Source of the DNA: an uncultured Verrucomicrobiota bacterium
Lineage (GTDB): Bacteria; Verrucomicrobiota; Kiritimatiellia; CAIQIC01; Lenti-01
Assembly (NCBI GenBank): GCA_964510645.1
Contig: CAZECJ010000002.1
Location: 11,432-75,431 of the forward strand
Direction: 5' to 3'
DNA length: 64,000 bases
The notes beneath the pieces are model-generated. The model did not search any database and was not told the origin of the DNA. It worked only from the letters and a program-made list of their open reading frames with translations. The position numbers were made by a program, and so were the translations under genes. This document shows, in pieces, positions 3,652-54,782 of the stretch (its first letter is position 1; the number at the start of each line of letters is the position of its first letter).

Positions 3652-6600
3652 ATGGGACTGCTCTGGGCGGTCGCGATGGTTTTGTCGCTTCAAGAAGCCC
3701 CCGCGCAGATGGTCGATCTGGGTTCCGCCTCCGGGTTTGCCGTTCTGGCCGGCGCCGGGATCACCATCGGCGCTTCGGGCACGACCACGATCGCCGGGGA
3801 TATCGGGTCGTATCCCACCGCGACCATCACGGGCACGGAAAATCTGGACTTGGACGGGACCAACCACGGGGGCGATGCGGTCACGCAGGCCGCCAAAATC
3901 GATCTGGCCACGGCGTATGCCGATGCCGCCGGCCGCACCCCCACCACGACGTATCCGCCGATCTATGATCTGGGAGGACAGACCCTCGGCCCCGGCGTCT
4001 ACGACGATCCCAGTTCATTCGGGATCACCGGCATCCTGACGCTGGATGCCGGCGGCGACCCGGATGCGGTTTGGATCTTCCAGGCCGGGTCCACGCTCAT
4101 CACGGCCTCGGGCAGCCAGGTGGTGTTGATCAATGGCGCGCAGGCCGGCCGCGTTTTCTGGCAAGTGGGCACGTCGGCGACGCTCGGAACGGGCACGGAC
4201 TTCGCGGGAACTCTCTTGGCCTCCGCATCCATCACGCTGGCGGCCGGCGCATCGGTGGGGGGAAGCCTGTTGGCTCTGAATGGCGCCGTCACGTTGGACG
4301 ACAATGCGATCGCGCGGAGCGCCGACCTCGCCGTTCTCGGCGACCGGGCGTGGTTCGACGCCGACCGCGACGGCATTCAGGATGCAGGCGAGACCAACGG
4401 GGTTACCGGCGTGCCCGTGGCGCTGCTGGACGTCGATTCGAACGTGGTGGCTGCGACCACTACCGATGCCGGAGGCCACTACCTGTTCGCGAACCTGGCC
4501 GCGGGCGGCTATCGGGTGCGGTTCGACCTCTCCACGGTCACCACGAATGTAATCATCAGTTCCGCCGACCAGGGCGGCGACGACGCTCTCGACAGCGATG
4601 CGACCACCGGCGATACGGGCGGCTACGTCGGCACGGAACTCGTCTCCATCGGCGGGAGCGAGACCAACCGGAGCGTCGACCTGGGCCTGCGGGTGCGCGG
4701 CACGACCCGCGCGTCCCTCGCCGAAGTCTGGGGCGAGTGGAGCGGCGGCGCAGGGCGCGTCGTTTGGCAGACGAGTTCGGAGTGGGGAACGGCGGGATTC
4801 TTCGTCTACCGCGTCGATCCGGAGACGGGCGCGGAAACGCGCCTGAACGACGTGCTGGTGGCGTCGGCGTTCCGCGAGGCCGGCTCGGTCTACGAGCTGG
4901 AAGATCCGGCACCCCGGGAAGGCGGTGCGGCGACCTATCGGATCGAGGAAATCGAGCTGTCGGGCGGTTCGCTGGATCTGGGTACTCACGAGGTGGCATT
5001 TGCCGCGGCGCGGCCCCGGGCCAAAGCCGCGAAGGCGACGCTGTCGAAGGCGCTGCTGGCGCTGCCCAAGCTGGCGGGGCCGTCGCCGATCCTGAAAGTG
5101 CTCGTGCGCGACGAAGGCCTCTACGGCGTGGGGCTGCAAGCCATCGCCGAGGGGATGGGAACCGCGCTGGCGGACGCGCAGGCCCTGGCGGAGACGGAGT
5201 CACTGGAAATTTCAGAGCGGGGTACGCCGGTGCCGGTGCTCTATGACGCGGCGCGCGCGCGGCTCGTGTTCCATGGCGAGCCGACGGACGACTGGTACAC
5301 GCGTGACAACGCCTATTTGATTTCGGAAGGCGCGGGGCTCCCGATGCCGCGGCGCGAGCCCGGCGCGTCCTCCGGCGAATCGGTCTTTCCGGCGCAGGTG
5401 CGATTCGAACTGGATCGGTATCCGTTCGACATCGCCACGACCCGGCCCGAGGACTTCTACTACTGGGACTATGTCATCAGCGGTGCGACCAACGCGACTT
5501 CGCTGCGGGACTTTCCGCTGGATCTTGCGGGCGCGGCCGTCGCCGTCGCGCTGAAGGTGCGCCTGATGGGCTGGTCGAGCACGACCAACAACCCCGACCA
5601 CTTGGCGGAATTCCGTTTCAATGGAACCCGCGTGGGTTTGGTCTCCTTCGACGGGCAGGATTCCATCGAGACCGAGGTGTCCGTGCCCGTCGCGCTGGTT
5701 TCGAATGGCGCGAACGTGCTTTCCGTGAAGGGCGTGCTGCAGCCCGGACGCAGCCACAGCTATTTCGTGGTGGACTGGATCGAGGCGTCGTTCGCGCGCG
5801 CGCTGGTGCCGCGGGCCGGCACGGCGCACTTCGCGGCCGGCGGCGCGGCGGCGGTTTCGGCGGCGGCGTTTGCCGCTCCGTTGGCGCTGGCCCTGGACGG
5901 GGAGGGGCATCCGACGTGGATCGCAGATGAAAACGGCGAGCTGCCGGCCAAGTCGTGGACGGCGGCGGAAGCCGACAGGCGCTTCGCGGTCGTCGAGTCG
6001 GCTTCCGTTCCGATGCTGGTACCGGAATCGGTGAACGCCGATCCGTGGTTCCTGTCGGAAACGAACCGCATCGATTACCTTGTGCTCACGTCGCGCGCGC
6101 TGGAACCGGCGGCGCAGGAGCTGGCGGACTATCGCTCCGCTCAAGGGTTGCGCGTCGGCGTGGCGACCTTCGAAGACGTCTGCGACGGGATGGCCGGCGG
6201 CCTGCGCACGCCGGAAGCGATTCCGGAGCTGCTGGCCTATGCGGCCGCGACCTGGGCGGAAGCCCCGTGGATGGTGGTGCTGGCGGGCAACGGGCACTAC
6301 GACTATCTGGGCGCGCTGAGCAACGAGGTGAACCATGTGCCCCCGCTGATGCTCCAGACCCTCGCGGGGCTCTTCGCGGCGGACGGCTTGCTGGCGGACG
6401 CCACGGGAGACGGGGTGCCGGACGTCGCGATCGGCCGCCTGCCGGCGCGGACCGCGGCGGAGCTGACCGCGATGATCGCGAAGATTAGGGCCTACGAGGC
6501 TGCCTTTGGTTCGGCTTGGCAGAACGAGTTCGTCCTGGCGGCCGACGTCGCCGATGCGGCGGGCGACTTCTCGACGGCGAACGCGATCTTCGCCGCATTG

Positions 6601-48439: not shown

Positions 48440-49216
48440 TCAGGCCTCGGCGACGTGCTGGTTCAGGCCGTTGGCGAGTTTATCGACTTCCGCGTTGGAC
48501 AGGACAGGCTTTTTGAAGCAGAAATCGTTGATGAAAGTGACGGTCTGCTCGGGGGTGAGCACGCGGCGCTCGGTATTGGTGACCTGGATTTCGGCGTTCG
48601 GATTGGCCAAGACGACGACGGAAAAGACATGTTCCCAGATCAGATTGGTGCCCTTGAGCCAGTTGCAGAGGATGCGCCGTTCGCGCAGGACCTTGCCGAT
48701 CGGATTGCGGACAGGGCGGATCTTGCCGTCGGGCGCGCGGATTTTCCAGGTATAGGCGTGTTTGCCGGTGTCGCCGACGATCTTGCCGTCCCAGTTGAGG
48801 GTGTTGAGCACGAACATGCCGGAAGGCGCGACGACGAGATGGTCGATCCAGCACTTTTCCCGGCCAACGACGAGGTGCAGGTCGTTGAGCACGTAATGGT
48901 CGTTGGCGAGCTTTTCATCCAGCAAGCGGGCGACCTCGCCCTTGGCTTCACGAATGCTGGCGGTGTCGACCTGATCCCGCATCTGTTCCCGGCGCCGAGC
49001 CTCGTGACCGAAGGCCAAGAAGGCCAAGGCGCCGCCGATGAACAGGACGAAGGCGGCGGACGAGTGGCCCAGGTTCTTCAGGAAGAAGCCGACGGCCAGG
49101 AAAAGAGCTGCGGCGCCCCATTCAATGAGGCGCATGCTCTTGAGAATGCGCAGGTCGCGCTCGATGGATTCCTGGCGTTCGCGGAGATTGCTTTCGCTGG
49201 TGAGTGTTTTAGCCAT
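48440..49216 (-). CDS. Membrane-anchored NERD-domain protein (paralog B)
   Basis: The architecture is the same as the downstream gene: 'MAKTLTSESNLRERQESIERDL', two TM segments, 'AKGEVARLLDEKLANDHYVLNDLHL...CWIDHLVVAPSGMFVLNTLNWDGKIVG'. A GGGAGA RBS is present. Confidence 0.7.
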   Translation of the reverse strand: MAKTLTSESNLRERQESIERDLRILKSMRLIEWGAAALFLAVGFFLKNLGHSSAAFVLFIGGALAFLAFGHEARRREQMRDQVDTASIREAKGEVARLLDEKLANDHYVLNDLHLVVGREKCWIDHLVVAPSGMFVLNTLNWDGKIVGDTGKHAYTWKIRAPDGKIRPVRNPIGKVLRERRILCNWLKGTNLIWEHVFSVVVLANPNAEIQVTNTERRVLTPEQTVTFINDFCFKKPVLSNAEVDKLANGLNQHVAEA

Positions 49217-49255
49217 GGGAATCTCCCAAATGGGGGTTGCGGATGATTCTGACGA

Positions 49256-51349
49256 TCAAAAGGCCGGAGCTACGGGGGTTGCCGGAGCGACAGCCGGGGC
49301 GGGGGCCACCGCGGGGGCCGGTGCAACCGCAGCCGGGGCGGCCGTTGCCACCGGGGGTGCCGAAACGACCGCAGGGGCTGCCGCGGGCGCCGGCGCGACG
49401 GCCGGTGCCGGGGCCGCCTCAGGGGCCGGTGCAACCGCAACCGGGGCGGCCGTCTCCACCGGGGGCGCCGAAACGACCGCAGGGGCTGCCGCGGGCGCCG
49501 GCGCGACGGCCGGGGCGGGGGCCACCGCCGGGGCCGGTGCAACCGCAGCCGGGGCGGCGGCGACGGGATCGGCGGTGACTTCGCCGATGGCGATGGTCCG
49601 GCTGCGCTCCGTGATGCGGACGTTGACGGCTTGGCCGACGGTGGTAGCGCCCTTCACGAAAATCACGAAGCCGTCGATCTTGGCGACGCCTTCGGTGGTC
49701 GGGTTCTTCTCGGAGGGCTCCACGATGGTCGTCGCGATCACGGCGCCGGGGACGACGTGGGGCGCGGAATCGCCGGGGCCGGGGACGTAGTTGCGCGGGG
49801 CGCGGGGCGCCGGCGCCGCATAGACAGGCAGGGGCTCGGTGCCGGCGGGCTTGCCCGTGGGCATGGCGGTCGCCACGCGTTCGCGGCGCTCGACGATGCG
49901 GACGTTGACGCGCTCGCCGATGGTGGTCGCGCCGTTCACGAAGACGACGAGGCCGCCGATCTTGGCGACGCCGTCGGTCAGGGGATTCTTCTCCGAGGCT
50001 TCGGCGATGACGACGTCCATTTCGGCGCCGGCCACGACGTGGGCGGTGGGATCGCCCGCGGGCGGCACGTAGGCGGCGCGCGGGGCGCGGGGCGCCGGCG
50101 CCGCATAGACGGGCAGGGGCTCGGTGCCGGCGGGCTTGCCGGTGAGTTCGGCGAAAGCCATGCGCTCGCGACGGTCGGTGATGCGGACATTGACGCGCTC
50201 GCCGACGGTGGTCGCGCCGTTCACGAAGACGACGAGGCCGGCGACCTTGGCGACGCCTTCGGTGGTCGGGTTCTTTTCCGAGGCTTCGGCGATGACGACG
50301 TCCATTTCGGCGCCGGGGATGACGTGGCCGGCGGAATCGCCGGGAGGCGGCACGAAGGCGGCGCGCGGGGCGCGGGCCGGCATCGCATAGGTGGGCAGGG
50401 GCTCGGTGCCGGCGGGTTTGCCCGTGGGCTCGGCGAAGGCGATGCGTTCGAGGCGCTCGACGATGCGGACGTTGACGCGCTCGCCGATGGTCGGCACGCC
50501 TTTCACGGAGACCACGAGGCCGCCGATCCGGGCGATGCCCTCGGCGTAGGGATTCTTCTCGGAGGGTTCGGAGACGACGACGTCCATCTCGGCGCCGACG
50601 ATGACCGGATCTCCGGCCGGGGGAACGTAGGCGGCGCGGGGCGCGCGGCCCGGCATCGCATAGGTGGGCAGCGGATCGGTGCCGGCGGGTTTGCCCGTGG
50701 GCTCGGCGAAGGCCATGCGCTCGCGGCGCTCGGTGATGCGGACGTTGACGCGCTCGCCGATGGTGGGTACGCCGTTCACGAAGACGATGAGACCGGCGAC
50801 TTTGGCCACGCCTTCGGTTTCGGGATTCTTGGAGGAGGCCTCGGTAATGATCACGTCCATCTCGGCGCCGGGGATGACGTGGCCGGCGGAATCGCCGGGC
50901 TGGGGCACGAAGGCGGCGCGGGGCGGCTTCGGGGGCAGGGCTACTTCGGAGAGCACGTCGATGAGGATGGCGTCGACCACGCGTTCGCGCACGCGGGTGA
51001 CGTCCACGATGGCGGTCATTCCCCGGCGGGCGGCGGGGATAAACGTGGTCATGCGGCCGATCTTGGCGATGCCGGAGGAGCGGTCGTCGCTTTCGTCGTC
51101 CACGTAGACCTTGTAGCGGTATCCCAGTTGCGGAAGGATGGGGTCGCCGCCGGTGGCGTCGATGATGCCGCCGGTGTTGATCGCGGTCGCGCCGGCCTGT
51201 CCTTCGCCCACGACGACGGTGACGACGGATTTCTCCTTGCTTTTCGTGGCGAAGATGGCGGCAACCACGAGGGCGATGCCCAAGATGGGCAGGAGGATCA
51301 GCGCGGCGGTTCGCAGGGGACTGCTGGAGGCAGGGGCGGGATCATTCAT
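49256..51349 (-). CDS. Membrane-anchored protein with six tandem TRAM-like domains and Ala/Pro-rich C-terminal tail
   Basis: An N-terminal TM segment 'AALILLPILGIALVVAAIFA' is followed by KSKEK. Five near-identical units carry 'PGAEMDVVI.E.SEKNP..EGVAK..GLVVFVNG..T.GERVNVRI..R.ER.AFAE' (the pattern of stand-alone TRAM proteins). One degenerate N-terminal unit precedes them. The tail is '(APAPAVAPAPA...)n'. AAGGAG lies 7 nt upstream of the ATG. Confidence 0.75.
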   Translation of the reverse strand: MNDPAPASSSPLRTAALILLPILGIALVVAAIFATKSKEKSVVTVVVGEGQAGATAINTGGIIDATGGDPILPQLGYRYKVYVDDESDDRSSGIAKIGRMTTFIPAARRGMTAIVDVTRVRERVVDAILIDVLSEVALPPKPPRAAFVPQPGDSAGHVIPGAEMDVIITEASSKNPETEGVAKVAGLIVFVNGVPTIGERVNVRITERRERMAFAEPTGKPAGTDPLPTYAMPGRAPRAAYVPPAGDPVIVGAEMDVVVSEPSEKNPYAEGIARIGGLVVSVKGVPTIGERVNVRIVERLERIAFAEPTGKPAGTEPLPTYAMPARAPRAAFVPPPGDSAGHVIPGAEMDVVIAEASEKNPTTEGVAKVAGLVVFVNGATTVGERVNVRITDRRERMAFAELTGKPAGTEPLPVYAAPAPRAPRAAYVPPAGDPTAHVVAGAEMDVVIAEASEKNPLTDGVAKIGGLVVFVNGATTIGERVNVRIVERRERVATAMPTGKPAGTEPLPVYAAPAPRAPRNYVPGPGDSAPHVVPGAVIATTIVEPSEKNPTTEGVAKIDGFVIFVKGATTVGQAVNVRITERSRTIAIGEVTADPVAAAPAAVAPAPAVAPAPAVAPAPAAAPAVVSAPPVETAAPVAVAPAPEAAPAPAVAPAPAAAPAVVSAPPVATAAPAAVAPAPAVAPAPAVAPATPVAPAF
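49314..49560. repeat. 108-bp tandem repeat (~2.3 copies) encoding the Ala/Pro-rich tail
   Basis: The unit starts with GGGGCCGGTGCAACCGCA at 49314, 49422 and 49530, read directly from the sequence. Confidence 0.85.
49600..50950. repeat. ~273-285-bp tandem repeat (about 5 copies) encoding the TRAM units
   Basis: The landmark CGCATAG(A/G) recurs at 49817, 50102, 50384 and 50657, giving periods of 285, 282 and 273 bp. The flanking GGCAGGGGCTCGGTGCCGGCGGG(C/T)TTGCC is conserved. Confidence 0.8.
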
Positions 51350-51486
51350 CGGACGACTCCTTATAGTTTATAAACCGTACACGATAGGGCTAACCGGGAC
51401 TTTTACAAGGATAAAGAACGCGCGCAACGGTCTGCGAGGGAACGTCGGCCGGCATCCGGAAAATCGAACTTCATCGCGCGTGGCTT

Positions 51487-52074
51487 TCAGGGCGTTCGGT
51501 ACAGGACTTCCATTTCGATGTTGGTGTACGCCGCCAGGAACTGCTTCATCACGTTCCAGCAACTGGGGCAGGGGTACAGTTCCGTGAACAGCAGCATGCG
51601 CCCCCCCGCCGCCGTGTCCGGCAGCCGCGCCGCCATGTCCTCGATGATTTTATATTCGGTGTCCACGTCGCGTTGCCAGCAGTCGAAGCCTTCCACCGCT
51701 TCGTCCTGGTTGACGCAGAGGGTCTTGAAGCGGCTGGCCGCGGGTTTGAGCGATATTTCCGCGATCGCGGCCTGGGCCTCGGTCGACAGGCCCTCGAAAT
51801 CCTGGATGCCGCTGTGGGCGAAAAACTCCCGCTTGTCCAGGCCGTCGATCTTCGCGATCGCCCAGGCAAAATTGTTGCGCTGCTGAAATTGCACGGGCAG
51901 CTTCTGGCGGACGAACTCGATTCGCTTCAGGACGGCGGCATCCTTGGCCGGATCGATCTGCCGCAATCCGGGATCGCGGGTGGGCGGCGGCGGCGGCGGG
52001 ACGGTATACCCTTGTGCAAAACCTGAAAGCGCGAAGGCCAAGAGGATCCAAAATGCAAAACCAAATTTGTTCAT
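51487..52074 (-). CDS. Secreted cytidine/nucleic-acid-deaminase-fold protein (atypical D-x-E ... P-C-x-x-C)
   Basis: The signal peptide is 'MNKFGFAFWILLAFALSGFAQG', followed by a poly-Pro linker. 'NFAWAIAKIDGLDKREFFAHSG' forms a beta-hairpin ending in SG, as in toxin-type deaminases. 'DTEYKIIEDM' sits where H-A-E normally is. 'LLFTELYPCPSCWNVMKQF' is a PCxxC zinc motif about 28 aa later. Confidence 0.45.
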   Translation of the reverse strand: MNKFGFAFWILLAFALSGFAQGYTVPPPPPPTRDPGLRQIDPAKDAAVLKRIEFVRQKLPVQFQQRNNFAWAIAKIDGLDKREFFAHSGIQDFEGLSTEAQAAIAEISLKPAASRFKTLCVNQDEAVEGFDCWQRDVDTEYKIIEDMAARLPDTAAGGRMLLFTELYPCPSCWNVMKQFLAAYTNIEMEVLYRTP

Positions 52075-52191
52075 TCGAACTTCTTCCATGGCGGGGGGGG
52101 AAGCCATTTGCGATCTTCTTCACTCTTCAACTAAAATTCTGATTCTACGCAGGTCGTTGGGCTTCTGCAAGGAATATGCGCGGGGAATCGC

Positions 52192-52218
52192 TTGTGCCCG
52201 GCCCGAATATGGTATAGT
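52192..52218 (+). promoter_or_regulatory. Candidate extended -10 promoter for the HydG-like gene
   Basis: TTGTGC is followed by 15 nt that end in TGG, then TATAGT (52213..52218). This lies 47 nt upstream of ATG 52265, which is preceded by AGGTGAGG. Confidence 0.35.
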
Positions 52219-52264
52219 AGGAAACGTCGCGCGGGAAAATCGGTTTACCCGCCGGCAGGTGAGG

Positions 52265-53764
52265 ATGACCATGAGGCTGCAGGAAAGACAACGGTGGGCG
52301 CGGGAACGCATCGTGCCCGCGGAGATCGGGAAATATCTGCGCGCGGACGGCTCGGATTTCGTCAACGACGCGGAGATTTTCCGTCTGCTGCAGGAAACCG
52401 GCGAGCCCGCGGCGGCGCAGGTGCGCGACGTCGTCGCGAAGGCGCTGGCGGTGCAGACCCTTTCGCAGGCGGAAGTGGCGACGCTGCTGCGCGTGCGCGA
52501 TCCGGGGCTGTGGGACGAGATGCGCGCGGCAGCCGGCGCCATCAAGCGCAAGGTGTACGACAACCGCATCGTGACGTTCGCCCCGCTCTACCTGAGCAGC
52601 AAGTGCGTGAACAACTGCGTCTATTGCGGCCTGCGCAGCTCGAACGACGCCGTGGAACGGCGCGTGCTGGCGATGGACGCCGTGCGCGCCGAAACCGAGG
52701 CGCTGGCCGGCAAGCTGGGCCACAAGCGCTTGATCGTGGTCTACGGCGAGCATCCGGAATCGGGCGTGGACTACATCGCCGAAAGCATCCGCGCGGTCTA
52801 TTCCGTGAAGGTGCAGACGCGCCGGGGCGTCGGCCAGATCCGCCGCGTGAACGTGAACGCCGCGCCGATGCGCGTGGCGGAGCTGAAGGTTCTGCACGAA
52901 TGCGGGCTGGGCACCTACCAGGTGTTCCAGGAGACCTACGACCGGCGCGCCTACGCGCAGCTGCATCCGGCGGGGACGATCAAGGGCGACTTCCGCTGGC
53001 GGCTGACGGCCATGCACCGCGCGCAGGACGCGGGCATCGACGACAACGGCATCGGCATCCTCTGCGGCCTGTCCGACTGGCGCTTCGAGCTGCTGGCGCA
53101 GCAGGCGCACGTGCACGAAATGGAGCGCTTCTGCGGCATCGGCCCGCATACGCTGTCCTTCCCGCGCCTCGAGCCCGCCGTCAACACGCCGTTCCTCGAG
53201 CAACCGGCCTGGCGCGTCAGCGACGCCGATTTCGAGCGCATCGTGGTGCTGGCGCGGCTGGCCGTGCCGTATGCGGGCCTGATCATCACCGCGCGCGAAT
53301 CGCCGGAGATGCGCCGGCGCCTGCTGCCGCTGGGCGTGACGCAGATGGACGCCGCCTCGAACGTCGGCGTCGGCGCCTACGCCGACGGGCAGGAAAAGCA
53401 AAAGGGCGAGCGCCAGCAGTTCATCCTGGGCGACCCGCGCGGCCTCGACGAGGTCGTGCGCGAGTGGGCCGGCTTGGGCTGCATCACCAGCTTCTGCACC
53501 GCGGGCTACCGCTGCGGGCGCACGGGCAAGTGCATCATGGACCTCCTGCGCAGCGGCGCCGAGGGCAAGTTCTGCAAGCTCAACGCCGTGCTGACCTTCA
53601 AGGAATGGCTCGACGACTTCGCCACGCCCGAAACCCAGGCCGTCGGGGAGGCGCTGCTGCAAAAGGAACTCGCCGAGGTGCGCCGGACCCAGCCGAAGAT
53701 CTGGCCGGCGTTCTGGGCGAACTACGAACGCACCGCCGCCGGCGAGCGCGATCTCTACTTCTAG
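52265..53764 (+). CDS. hydG: Radical SAM tyrosine-lyase family protein, HydG-like (ThiH/HydG)
   Basis: 'KRKVYDNRIVTFAPLYLSSKCVNNCVYCGLRSSN' is the HydG/ThiH CxxxCxxC context. The N-terminal 'DAEIFRLLQE...' is present. The C-terminal 'ITSFCTAGYRCGRTGKCIMDL' resembles the HydG auxiliary-cluster region (canonical 'SFCTACYR'). Confidence 0.65.
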   Translation: MTMRLQERQRWARERIVPAEIGKYLRADGSDFVNDAEIFRLLQETGEPAAAQVRDVVAKALAVQTLSQAEVATLLRVRDPGLWDEMRAAAGAIKRKVYDNRIVTFAPLYLSSKCVNNCVYCGLRSSNDAVERRVLAMDAVRAETEALAGKLGHKRLIVVYGEHPESGVDYIAESIRAVYSVKVQTRRGVGQIRRVNVNAAPMRVAELKVLHECGLGTYQVFQETYDRRAYAQLHPAGTIKGDFRWRLTAMHRAQDAGIDDNGIGILCGLSDWRFELLAQQAHVHEMERFCGIGPHTLSFPRLEPAVNTPFLEQPAWRVSDADFERIVVLARLAVPYAGLIITARESPEMRRRLLPLGVTQMDAASNVGVGAYADGQEKQKGERQQFILGDPRGLDEVVREWAGLGCITSFCTAGYRCGRTGKCIMDLLRSGAEGKFCKLNAVLTFKEWLDDFATPETQAVGEALLQKELAEVRRTQPKIWPAFWANYERTAAGERDLYF

Positions 53765-53819
53765 GATGGACAGCGCCCCGCGCCCGGTGGCAAGATGACT
53801 TGTTTGTGAGGACAGAACC

Positions 53820-54782
53820 GTGACCATTCGATTGTCGCCCAACCATCGGCTGAAGCCGCTGTTCGACCGGAACCACGTGGCGTGGCTGAGCGAACAGGAG
53901 GCCGAACACCAGGACATCCGCCCGCTGCGCATCGGCATCCTGAACATCATGCCGCACGCGGAGGACTACGAGTTCAACCTCTTGGCGCCGATGGGCCGCA
54001 GCATCCTCCAGATCGTGCCCATCTGGATCCGGCTGCAAACGCACGACTACAAGAGTTCCGACCACGCCCACCTCGACCGGCACTACGTGCCCTACGACTG
54101 GGCGCAGTCCGTGGCGTCCCTCGACGGCCTGATCGTGACGGGCGCGCCGGTCGAAGAGCTGCCGTGGGAGACCGTGACCTACTGGAAGGAACTGTGCGGG
54201 ATCGTCGATGCGGCGAAGGCCGGCGGCACCTGCATCCTCGGCATCTGCTGGGGCGGCCTCGCGCTGGCGAAGTACCTCGGCATCGAGAAGAAAATGTATC
54301 CGCAGAAGGTGTTCGGCGTCTATCCCACGCGCAACCTCGTGCCGGGCCATCCCATCACCGGCGGGCTCGACGACGTGTTCCAATGTCCGCAGAGCCGGCA
54401 TTCCGGCATCGACGACGCCGTGCTCGAGGCCGCGGAAAAGGACGGCAAGCTCCGCCTGCTCGCGCACGCGGAAAAAGGCGGCTACACGATTTTCGAGACC
54501 CCCGACCACCAGATCGTCATGCATCTGGGCCACCAGGAATACAATTCCTCGCGCCTGCTGAGCGAGGCGCGCCGCGATCTCCTGAAGAAACGGCCCGACG
54601 TCGGCCCGCTGGAAAACCTCGACGAGAAGAACCCCGTCAACACCTGGCGGGCGAACCGCAACGAGTTCTTCAATTCCTGGATCAAGTACGTCTACCTGAC
54701 CACGCCCTTCGCCAAGGCGCAGACGGCGTCCGCGCGGACCAACGAGATCGTGGTGGCCGACGGCCCCGGCGGCGCGACATGA
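53820..54782 (+). CDS. metA: Homoserine O-acyltransferase (MetA family)
   Basis: 'RPLRIGILNIMPHAEDYEFNLLAPMG...IWIRLQTHDYKSS...LDGLIVTGAPVEELPWETVTYWKEL...ILGICWGGLALAKYLGIEK' includes the catalytic Cys context. The start is GTG. Confidence 0.85.
   Translation: MTIRLSPNHRLKPLFDRNHVAWLSEQEAEHQDIRPLRIGILNIMPHAEDYEFNLLAPMGRSILQIVPIWIRLQTHDYKSSDHAHLDRHYVPYDWAQSVASLDGLIVTGAPVEELPWETVTYWKELCGIVDAAKAGGTCILGICWGGLALAKYLGIEKKMYPQKVFGVYPTRNLVPGHPITGGLDDVFQCPQSRHSGIDDAVLEAAEKDGKLRLLAHAEKGGYTIFETPDHQIVMHLGHQEYNSSRLLSEARRDLLKKRPDVGPLENLDEKNPVNTWRANRNEFFNSWIKYVYLTTPFAKAQTASARTNEIVVADGPGGAT

Follow-up and report, generated by a model that had tools for sequence, protein, structure and literature searches.

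What kind of protein is exported by a bacterium with a deaminase-like core in which aspartate stands at the position of the first zinc ligand? The question is raised by a gene of 195 codons on the minus strand (51487 to 52074) of a 64,000-nucleotide stretch of DNA, hereafter the window, from an uncultured Verrucomicrobiota bacterium of the class Kiritimatiellia (assembly GCA_964510645.1, contig CAZECJ010000002.1, positions 11,432 to 75,431). An earlier reading of the letters, made without database searches and referred to here as the sequence-only reading, had described the product as a small secreted deaminase-fold protein with D-T-E in place of H-A-E, and had suggested that the Asp brings novel chemistry or specificity or else marks an inactive binder. 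By sequence comparison, the window protein is a small exported member of the described DxE toxin-deaminase family PF14424, and Asp at the first zinc-ligand position is a published hallmark of that clade, not a novelty of this protein. At a probability of roughly 0.6, we read it as a Sec-exported, domain-minimal toxin-type deaminase of the BURPS668_1122/PF14424 clade, with a predicted activity and a proposed antagonistic role.

Assignment to the PF14424 toxin-deaminase family

Against the Pfam profile PF14424 (BURPS668_1122 "Toxin-deaminase") the window protein scores 105.7 bits (cut-off 29.6; E value 3.1e-30), in a match that covers positions 4 to 144 of the 146 in the profile, and a whole-genome profile search agrees with this assignment. 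The match extends over residues 55 to 192 (51499 to 51912, minus strand). Sub-threshold Pfam matches are to SNAD4, NAD1, APOBEC_N and Pput2613-deam (E 0.088, far below cut-off). PF14428 (SCP1.201) and YwqJ, the families to which the sequence-only reading had pointed, are absent from the Pfam matches at E values up to 10, and YwqJ-like proteins carry Gx[CH]xE where helix 2 of the window protein reads DVDTE, so that membership in either is not upheld. NCBIfam has no family for the protein, none of the PADLOC defense models matches the deaminase, and an Rfam search of window positions 49000 to 54000 found nothing. A word-indexed search recovered 188 homologous protein clusters of ~190 to 220 residues, with PF14424 in every listed match. 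The few named clusters are called 'deaminase domain-containing protein [Kiritimatiellia bacterium]', and the named genome matches are uncultured Kiritimatiellia or 'Verrucomicrobia' metagenome-assembled genomes from digesters, rumen and similar sources.

The BURPS668_1122 clade was defined by Iyer, Zhang, Rogozin and Aravind in 2011 by "RxxDxExK in helix 2" (PMC3239186). Its further traits are an insert before helix 2 and a truncation after helix 3; the zinc motif at helix 3 is written 'CxxCxS' in their Table 1, and signal-peptide ('T2SS', type II secretion system) export is among the secretion routes listed (PMC3239186). Helix 2 of the window protein fits this signature exactly, as R135-D-V-D138-T-E140-Y-K142 (51649 to 51672, minus strand; reverse complement CGC GAC GTG GAC ACC GAA TAT AAA), with Asp replacing the His/Cys zinc ligand. 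The CxxC is present as C169-P-S171-C172, preceded by P168 at the start of helix 3 (51559 to 51573, minus strand; reverse complement CCC TGC CCC AGT TGC); two residues past the second Cys stands N174, a family-variable position, versus the Ser of the literal CxxCxS. The two motifs lie within DVDTEYKIIEDM (residues 136 to 147) and LFTELYPCPSCWNVM (residues 162 to 176), with 28 residues from E140 to P168 and 31 from D138 to C169, and upstream of them are AIAKIDG (72 to 78) and FFAHSG (84 to 89). All the elements that the sequence-only reading had listed, namely the signal peptide, the PPPPPP linker, AIAKIDG...FFAHSG, D-x-E, PCPSC and a spacing of about 28 residues, are present in the translation, and the RDVDTEYK and PCPSC motifs were checked in the DNA.

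Does the Asp nevertheless point to something new? A base-editor screen guided by structure clustering reported that members of the 'Toxin-deaminase (PF14424)' clade deaminate cytidine in single-stranded DNA (ssDNA; bioRxiv 10.1101/2023.05.21.541555), and in other literature PF14424 domains figure as predicted toxin domains of contact-dependent inhibition (CDI) or type VI secretion systems (T6SS). As the clade was published with Asp and its members are reported active, Asp alone implies no new chemistry, and the novelty that had been attached to it falls away. We therefore regard as improbable the alternative that the Asp ligand gives a new chemistry or substrate class, making the protein no cytosine deaminase and distinct from the known toxin deaminases. 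Such a departure could be harbored in the substrate-side insert, with its C120/C132 pair and conserved AHSG; no PF14424 structure was found in the PDB by sequence search, and the activity data for the clade are those of one screen of other members. The Asp is nonetheless clade-wide (43/44 sequences) and was described in 2011 (PMC3239186), and the catalytic motifs of the window protein are indistinguishable from those of clade members reported as cytidine deaminases.

Export signal and predicted structure

The start codon of the gene is the one called for an 88%-identical homologue in locus L001, and the stop codon occupies 51487 to 51489. Translation from this start begins with a signal peptide of 22 residues, MNKFGFAFWILLAFALSGFAQG (52009 to 52074, minus strand), which was assigned by reading the sequence and is of the Sec/signal peptidase I (SPase I) type without a lipobox. 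The predicted Sec signal, MNKFGFAFWILLAFALSGFA|QG, has K3 in the n-region, an 18-residue hydrophobic core, a small-x-small cleavage site and no lipobox Cys. The PPPPPP linker (residues 26 to 31; 51982 to 51999, minus strand) joins the signal peptide to the domain and is gapped and variable in the alignment. From R33 onward the N-terminal extension is conserved, and it is common also to the polymorphic-toxin relatives described below.

An AlphaFold2 (AF2) model built on 30 homologues has a mean predicted local distance difference test score (pLDDT) of 88 and a predicted template modeling score (pTM) of 0.79. The signal peptide is modeled as a helix (5 to 19) of low pLDDT, and values fall below 50 at residues 19 to 26. 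From its N-terminal side the domain runs through helix 46-56/61-64, strands 69-76 and 83-87, an insert of ~50 residues (88 to 137), helix 139-150, strand 157-166, helix 170-182 and strand 185-194, so that the insert separates the second strand from the helix that holds E140 and K142. D138 stands directly before this helix, and C169/C172 span the start of helix 170-182, the placement that catalytic helices would be expected to show. Strand 5 and helix 4 are missing from the model: a single strand follows helix 3, and then the protein ends. The window protein is thus modeled as a deaminase core that stops after strand 4, in keeping with the published description of the clade.

The top matches of a Foldseek search of the AF2 model against the PDB were almost exclusively APOBEC3 deaminases, with a best E value of 6e-3, a probability of 0.96 and a TM score of ~0.3. 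These matches to a predicted structure support a deaminase fold and are not decisive alone. A profile search of PDB sequences likewise gave weak APOBEC3 matches only, limited to the strand-3/PCxxC/helix-3 segment, and a single-sequence search of the PDB with the window protein gave no match. Judged by these sequence and profile searches, the PF14424 clade appears to be without a solved structure. The Pfam match, the AF2 model and the export signal agree with the earlier description of the product as a stand-alone exported protein of deaminase fold.

Conservation of the catalytic motifs

Conservation was examined at three depths: in a 30-sequence alignment of homologues, in a family-wide alignment of 44 sequences (the window protein and 43 diverse relatives from an exhaustive HMMER search), and in 72 Kiritimatiellia copies from 56 loci of species-representative genomes. 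D138, T139, E140 and K142 are invariant in the 30 homologues (alignment A1). Family-wide, R135, E140, K142, G158, T164, C169, S171, C172, F179 and S88 are conserved in 44/44 sequences and D138 in 43/44. Among the Kiritimatiellia copies, RxxDxExK is kept in 71/72 and CxxC in 72/72.

Many of the family-wide relatives are C-terminal domains of proteins of 1000 to 2700 residues. PF14424 was scored in all six large relatives checked, two of which have RHS repeats; these RHS-repeat polymorphic toxins, of 2319 to 2729 residues, carry PF14424 at the C terminus. An N-terminal hydrophobic export segment is found in 30/30 of the homologues in the 30-sequence alignment, with a lipobox in four. These four (P0011, P0021, P0040 and P0053) are of the DeamB type, the second deaminase of the tandem pairs described in the next section, and have LAAC, LAGC or LSAC, a longer linker and no SPase I site. 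By sequence, this subgroup suggests membrane-tethered lipoprotein versions of the DeamB-type deaminase.

A second pair of cysteines, C120 and C132 (51679 to 51717, minus strand), lies in the insert that separates strand 2 from helix 2 and is invariant in the 30-sequence alignment. The pair is a feature of the DeamB-type copies and of those linked to SpoIIE; 16/16 DeamA proteins, the first deaminases of the tandem pairs, lack it, as do nearly all polymorphic-toxin relatives. We infer that the two residues form a disulfide in the exported protein.

Relative to its orthologue in L001, the window copy has a ratio of nonsynonymous to synonymous substitution rates (dN/dS) of 0.22, and all 24 substitutions fall outside the motifs; the gene has been under purifying selection since its insertion at this site. 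Given that D, E, K and CxSC vary hardly or not at all and that dN/dS is 0.22, an inactive binder, the other possibility entertained by the sequence-only reading, is disfavored. In its broader form, which takes the protein for a binder that has lost catalysis or for an orphan in decay, this explanation would fit a copy that has neither an adjacent partner gene nor a DeamA neighbor and that occupies a non-ancestral location. It is very unlikely, given that every catalytic and family-invariant residue is intact and that the substitutions all avoid the motifs.

Deaminase cassettes in Kiritimatiellia genomes

The genome from which the window comes is 82.6% complete and has four PF14424 copies; besides that of the window, contig C68 has one and contig C5 has two in tandem. 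At the class level PF14424 was found in 11/151 sampled genomes, and within the same bacterial family in all six of the other sampled genomes (6/6). The 72 copies fall into three contexts. In the first, a 228-residue gene product without a Pfam match is followed by thiolase, DUF35, DeamA, DeamB and a small gene of ~117 codons; such a small gene lies within 250 bp downstream of 27 DeamB copies. In the second, which accounts for 18/72 copies and includes the one on C68, a SpoIIE-type response regulator precedes the deaminase and a GEVED-domain protein often follows; no small partner gene adjoins the SpoIIE-context deaminases. The third consists of 11 orphan copies. Loci of the second context include, besides that on C68 itself (L013, 2706 to 7745), L004, L043, L047, L048, L051 and L052, and the GEVED-domain protein is large and secreted.

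DeamA-DeamB followed by a cytoplasmic helical protein of 117 residues is the ancestral arrangement elsewhere. The module on C5 (locus L012, 525 to 4775) runs from the 228-residue protein through thiolase, DUF35 (zf-ChsH2), secreted DeamA and secreted DeamB to the 117-residue protein (4422 to 4775). The partner protein has no signal peptide, has 44 invariant positions among seven sequences and is predicted to be an all-helical bundle (pLDDT 93). It matches no Pfam family, no PADLOC model and no fold in the PDB (best E 1.2), and its homologues form 143 clusters, all of unnamed Kiritimatiellia proteins. That it comes right behind DeamB and is cytoplasmic would fit immunity against a cytoplasm-acting toxin, which makes it, from gene order, a candidate immunity factor, possibly of a new immunity family for PF14424 deaminases.

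To compare the cassette with its frame, loci L005, L006, L007, L014, L015 and L026-L075 were set against L012. Thiolase is 94 to 98% and DUF35 89 to 94% identical to the C5 genes, whereas DeamA is 66 to 89% and the small protein 63 to 80% identical, and DeamB falls into two groups, of 81 to 87% or 59 to 66%. Within this conserved frame, the two DeamB classes and the divergence of the small protein suggest either that allelic cassettes replaced one another or that the cassette evolves fast in one place. A fast-evolving, two-allele cassette in a conserved frame is easier to reconcile with a conflict system, where toxin and immunity genes are expected to diverge, than with a housekeeping enzyme.

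Further genes accompany the module. A few kilobases downstream lie giant genes, of 12805, 12173 and 12698 codons as called (L005, 11905 to end; L007, 8622 to end; L015, 11213 to end), and the counterpart on C5 (L012, 7950 to 14000) is open over more than 2017 codons with FN3-like repeated segments. Between the deaminase module and the giant gene are pairs of small nucleotidyltransferase/HEPN-type (or nucleotidyltransferase-substrate-binding) genes, typical toxin-antitoxin modules, at L005 8519 to 9245, L015 10451 to 11144 and L012 6897 to 7940.

Insertion of the window copy

The window copy stands outside these cassettes. Its gene is divergent from a HydG/ThiH-like radical-SAM gene and lies 137 bp upstream of a gene for a TRAM-repeat membrane protein, with two NERD genes next in line. 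The sequence-only reading had seen no immunity-like gene next to it, and this is borne out: the immediate next gene, 137 bp from the stop codon, is the TRAM gene, no Imm or SUKH Pfam match adjoins the deaminase, and the single homologue of the partner protein in this genome is on another contig, C5.

The window arrangement is retained only with the close relative P0003 (88% identity; loci L001-L003). In three genomes of the same genus (G124, G062 and G032) and one of the sister genus in the same family (G094), only ~225 bp separate radical-SAM orthologues of 82 to 89% identity from the TRAM gene, and this interval has no deaminase; the TRAM leader sequence is conserved at these empty sites. 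Because radical-SAM and TRAM genes are directly adjacent in four related genomes, the window gene is a lineage-specific insertion and no ancestral part of the TRAM-NERD block. The inserted segment, gene and flanks together, spans approximately 51425 to 52265, between the TRAM-gene leader and the radical-SAM start.

These empty sites also bear on whether the deaminase is a functional part of a minus-strand module of five genes, the others being those for the TRAM-repeat protein, both NERD proteins and a P-loop kinase. The deaminase gene shares a strand with the TRAM gene and lies 137 bp upstream of it, the arrangement is kept in L001-L003, and TRAM and NERD are nucleic-acid-related domains. We consider such a module highly unlikely: the TRAM-NERD-NERD block persists beside the radical-SAM gene without the deaminase in the four genomes, and none of the 56 other loci (0/56) links a deaminase to the radical-SAM/TRAM context. 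A weak terminator-like hairpin between the deaminase and TRAM genes would also separate them, although a scan found such sites no commoner than in shuffled sequence. The TRAM and NERD genes were accordingly rejected as functional partners.

Where did the inserted copy come from? It carries the DeamB-type Cys pair and is 55% identical to the DeamB of its own genome and 69 to 76% identical to DeamBs of other genomes. In both best trees it falls outside its own genome's DeamB clade, and in the larger tree it is nested among the DeamBs of other lineages. The approximately unbiased test does not reject a grouping of the window copy with the DeamB clade of its own genome (difference in log-likelihood 27, p 0.10). 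The window copy is an extra orphan DeamB-type allele; its acquisition from another Kiritimatiellia lineage is likely, not demonstrated.

Proposed antagonistic function

For the toxin-type deaminase that we favor, we propose the following course. The signal peptide would be cleaved, and the mature protein of ~173 residues would fold outside the cytoplasm, probably with a C120-C132 disulfide. D138, C169 and C172 would hold zinc as presumed ligands, and E140, the presumed proton shuttle, would activate water for the deamination of a nucleic-acid base, with K142, S88 and H87 placed near the substrate. By analogy with the tested family members, the most likely substrate would be cytosine in ssDNA. 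The protein would serve as an exported antagonistic deaminase, whose canonical form in Kiritimatiellia would be DeamA-DeamB plus the candidate immunity protein. Self-protection could be owed to export in an unfolded state, to the single C5 partner gene acting in trans, or to both.

Several points weigh against this proposal. Activity, metal binding and toxicity are predictions, made by analogy, for the window protein and for the stand-alone Kiritimatiellia members alike. The mature protein is little more than the bare domain, without a receptor-binding or translocation domain for target-cell entry, so that a route into target cells has to be presumed. The features usual in polymorphic toxins are only partly there: the N-terminal trafficking region consists of the Sec signal peptide and Pro linker only, with no translocation domain, and the window locus has no Imm2, Imm3 or SUKH gene immediately downstream. 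The partner protein matches no known immunity family, and its candidate role comes from gene order. The model bears a weak resemblance to deaminases of known structure (Foldseek E 6e-3, TM ~0.3). Finally, a syntenic position that is stable across genera, and a family found in 6/6 same-family genomes, are less typical of mobile polymorphic toxins.

The main rival explanation, a periplasmic or surface deaminase that is not antagonistic, draws on several of the same observations. Such an extracytoplasmic housekeeping enzyme would act on nucleosides, nucleobases or extracellular DNA or RNA, in salvage or signaling, and the small protein would be its regulator or chaperone. It would account for Sec signals in all copies and lipoboxes in some, for syntenic loci in three conserved genomic contexts and in 6/6 other sampled same-family genomes, for the lack of a trafficking or translocation domain and for a small protein unlike any known immunity family. 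We judge it possible but the less probable account. RHS and other polymorphic toxins carry this domain, with identical invariant residues, as their C-terminal warhead, and PF14424 members are reported to be active on ssDNA (bioRxiv 10.1101/2023.05.21.541555); moreover, the cassette diverges far faster than its neighbors, with two allelic DeamB types at one locus, which suggests conflict, and the distribution at the class level is patchy.

A toxin-type deaminase need not belong to a system already described. Tentatively, and with low confidence, the stand-alone Sec-exported DxE deaminases of Kiritimatiellia could represent an undescribed system of antagonism or extracellular nucleic-acid editing, with the window gene an orphan allele captured from another lineage. 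The group is set apart by 3 to 4 paralogues per genome in the genus, by their pairing as DeamA-DeamB, by a Cys pair and a helical partner that are both particular to the lineage, and by delivery with no recognizable translocation domain. If this were so, substrate preference might differ from that of the tested members, the 160-residue core would be a candidate compact base-editing scaffold, and the helical partner, for which no fold relative is known, would constitute a new family of immunity proteins.

Relation to known deaminases

Within its own clade, the window protein shares with BURPS668_1122/PF14424 toxins the full-length hidden Markov model match, RxxDxExK in helix 2, PCxSC at helix 3, truncation after strand 4 and a secretion route, signal-peptide export, that is listed for the clade. 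It differs in being a stand-alone protein of 195 residues rather than the C terminus of an RHS, CDI, T6SS or type VII secretion system (T7SS) toxin, in having no Imm2, Imm3 or SUKH neighbor, and in the extra pair C120/C132. The Kiritimatiellia expansion as a whole also differs, with its 3 to 4 paralogues per genome in the genus, conserved positions and lineage-restricted helical partner.

DddA (BaDTF1), the T6SS toxin of the SCP1.201 family (PF14428) that deaminates cytosine in double-stranded DNA and is paired with the immunity protein DddI, resembles the window protein in the insert before helix 2 and in a polar K/Q two residues past the catalytic Glu; some SCP1.201 members have DxE, and the toxin-plus-immunity logic is the same. 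DddA itself uses HxE. It makes up the C-terminal domain of a large T6SS effector, unlike the window protein, which has no PF14428 match. The SCP1.201/DddA clade is the sister of the BURPS668_1122 clade (PMC3239186). SsdA (BaDTF2, DYW-like) and BaDTF3, from the same superfamily, are toxins that act between bacteria by deaminating cytosine in nucleic acids, and each is paired with its own immunity protein, but they belong to other clades than the window protein; HxE motifs are given for the DYW and Pput_2613 clades (PMC3239186). Similarity to the ssDNA cytosine deaminases AID/APOBEC is seen in the PDB fold matches, in the profile-level alignment of the strand-3/PCxxC/helix-3 segment and in the weak Pfam matches to SNAD4, NAD1 and APOBEC_N. 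AID/APOBEC proteins have HxE versus the DxE of the window protein, the TM score is ~0.3, and APOBECs are cytoplasmic or nuclear eukaryotic proteins.

The window gene can thus be annotated with confidence as PF14424, and nothing in it points to new chemistry. It adds a well-conserved, domain-minimal, exported subgroup to a clade with apparently no solved structure and almost no biochemistry, and it documents cleanly that an orphan toxin-type allele was inserted in recent time. DxE deaminases of such compact size have practical appeal as scaffolds for base editors. Of greater interest is the DeamA-DeamB-partner module on C5, outside the window, with its unclassified helical protein.

Base composition and neighboring genes

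The sequence-only reading had noted that the gene is AT-richer than its surroundings. This holds weakly: its GC content is 60.9% versus 66.5% (standard deviation 3.5%) for the window, within the lowest 8.5% of 588-bp windows. The difference is marginal, and GC is 60 to 64% in all four paralogues and in the NERD gene two genes downstream; as it matches the other paralogues, the low GC reflects the family, and AT-richness was rejected as a sign of foreign origin.

On the far side of the insertion, the radical-SAM protein (52268 to 53764, plus strand) has Radical_SAM and BATS domains and is encoded beside metA and gpsA; its conservation within the genus and the sister genus is 82 to 89%, and the flanks examined showed neither hydrogenase-maturation nor thiamine genes. 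The TRAM protein (49256 to 51349, minus strand) is membrane anchored, with five TRAM domains detected by Pfam and an Ala/Pro-rich tail. In the deaminase-free relatives (L022-L025), its gene and the two NERD paralogues adjoin the HydG-like radical-SAM gene, and multiple offset tblastn alignments indicate that the number of TRAM repeats varies among genomes.

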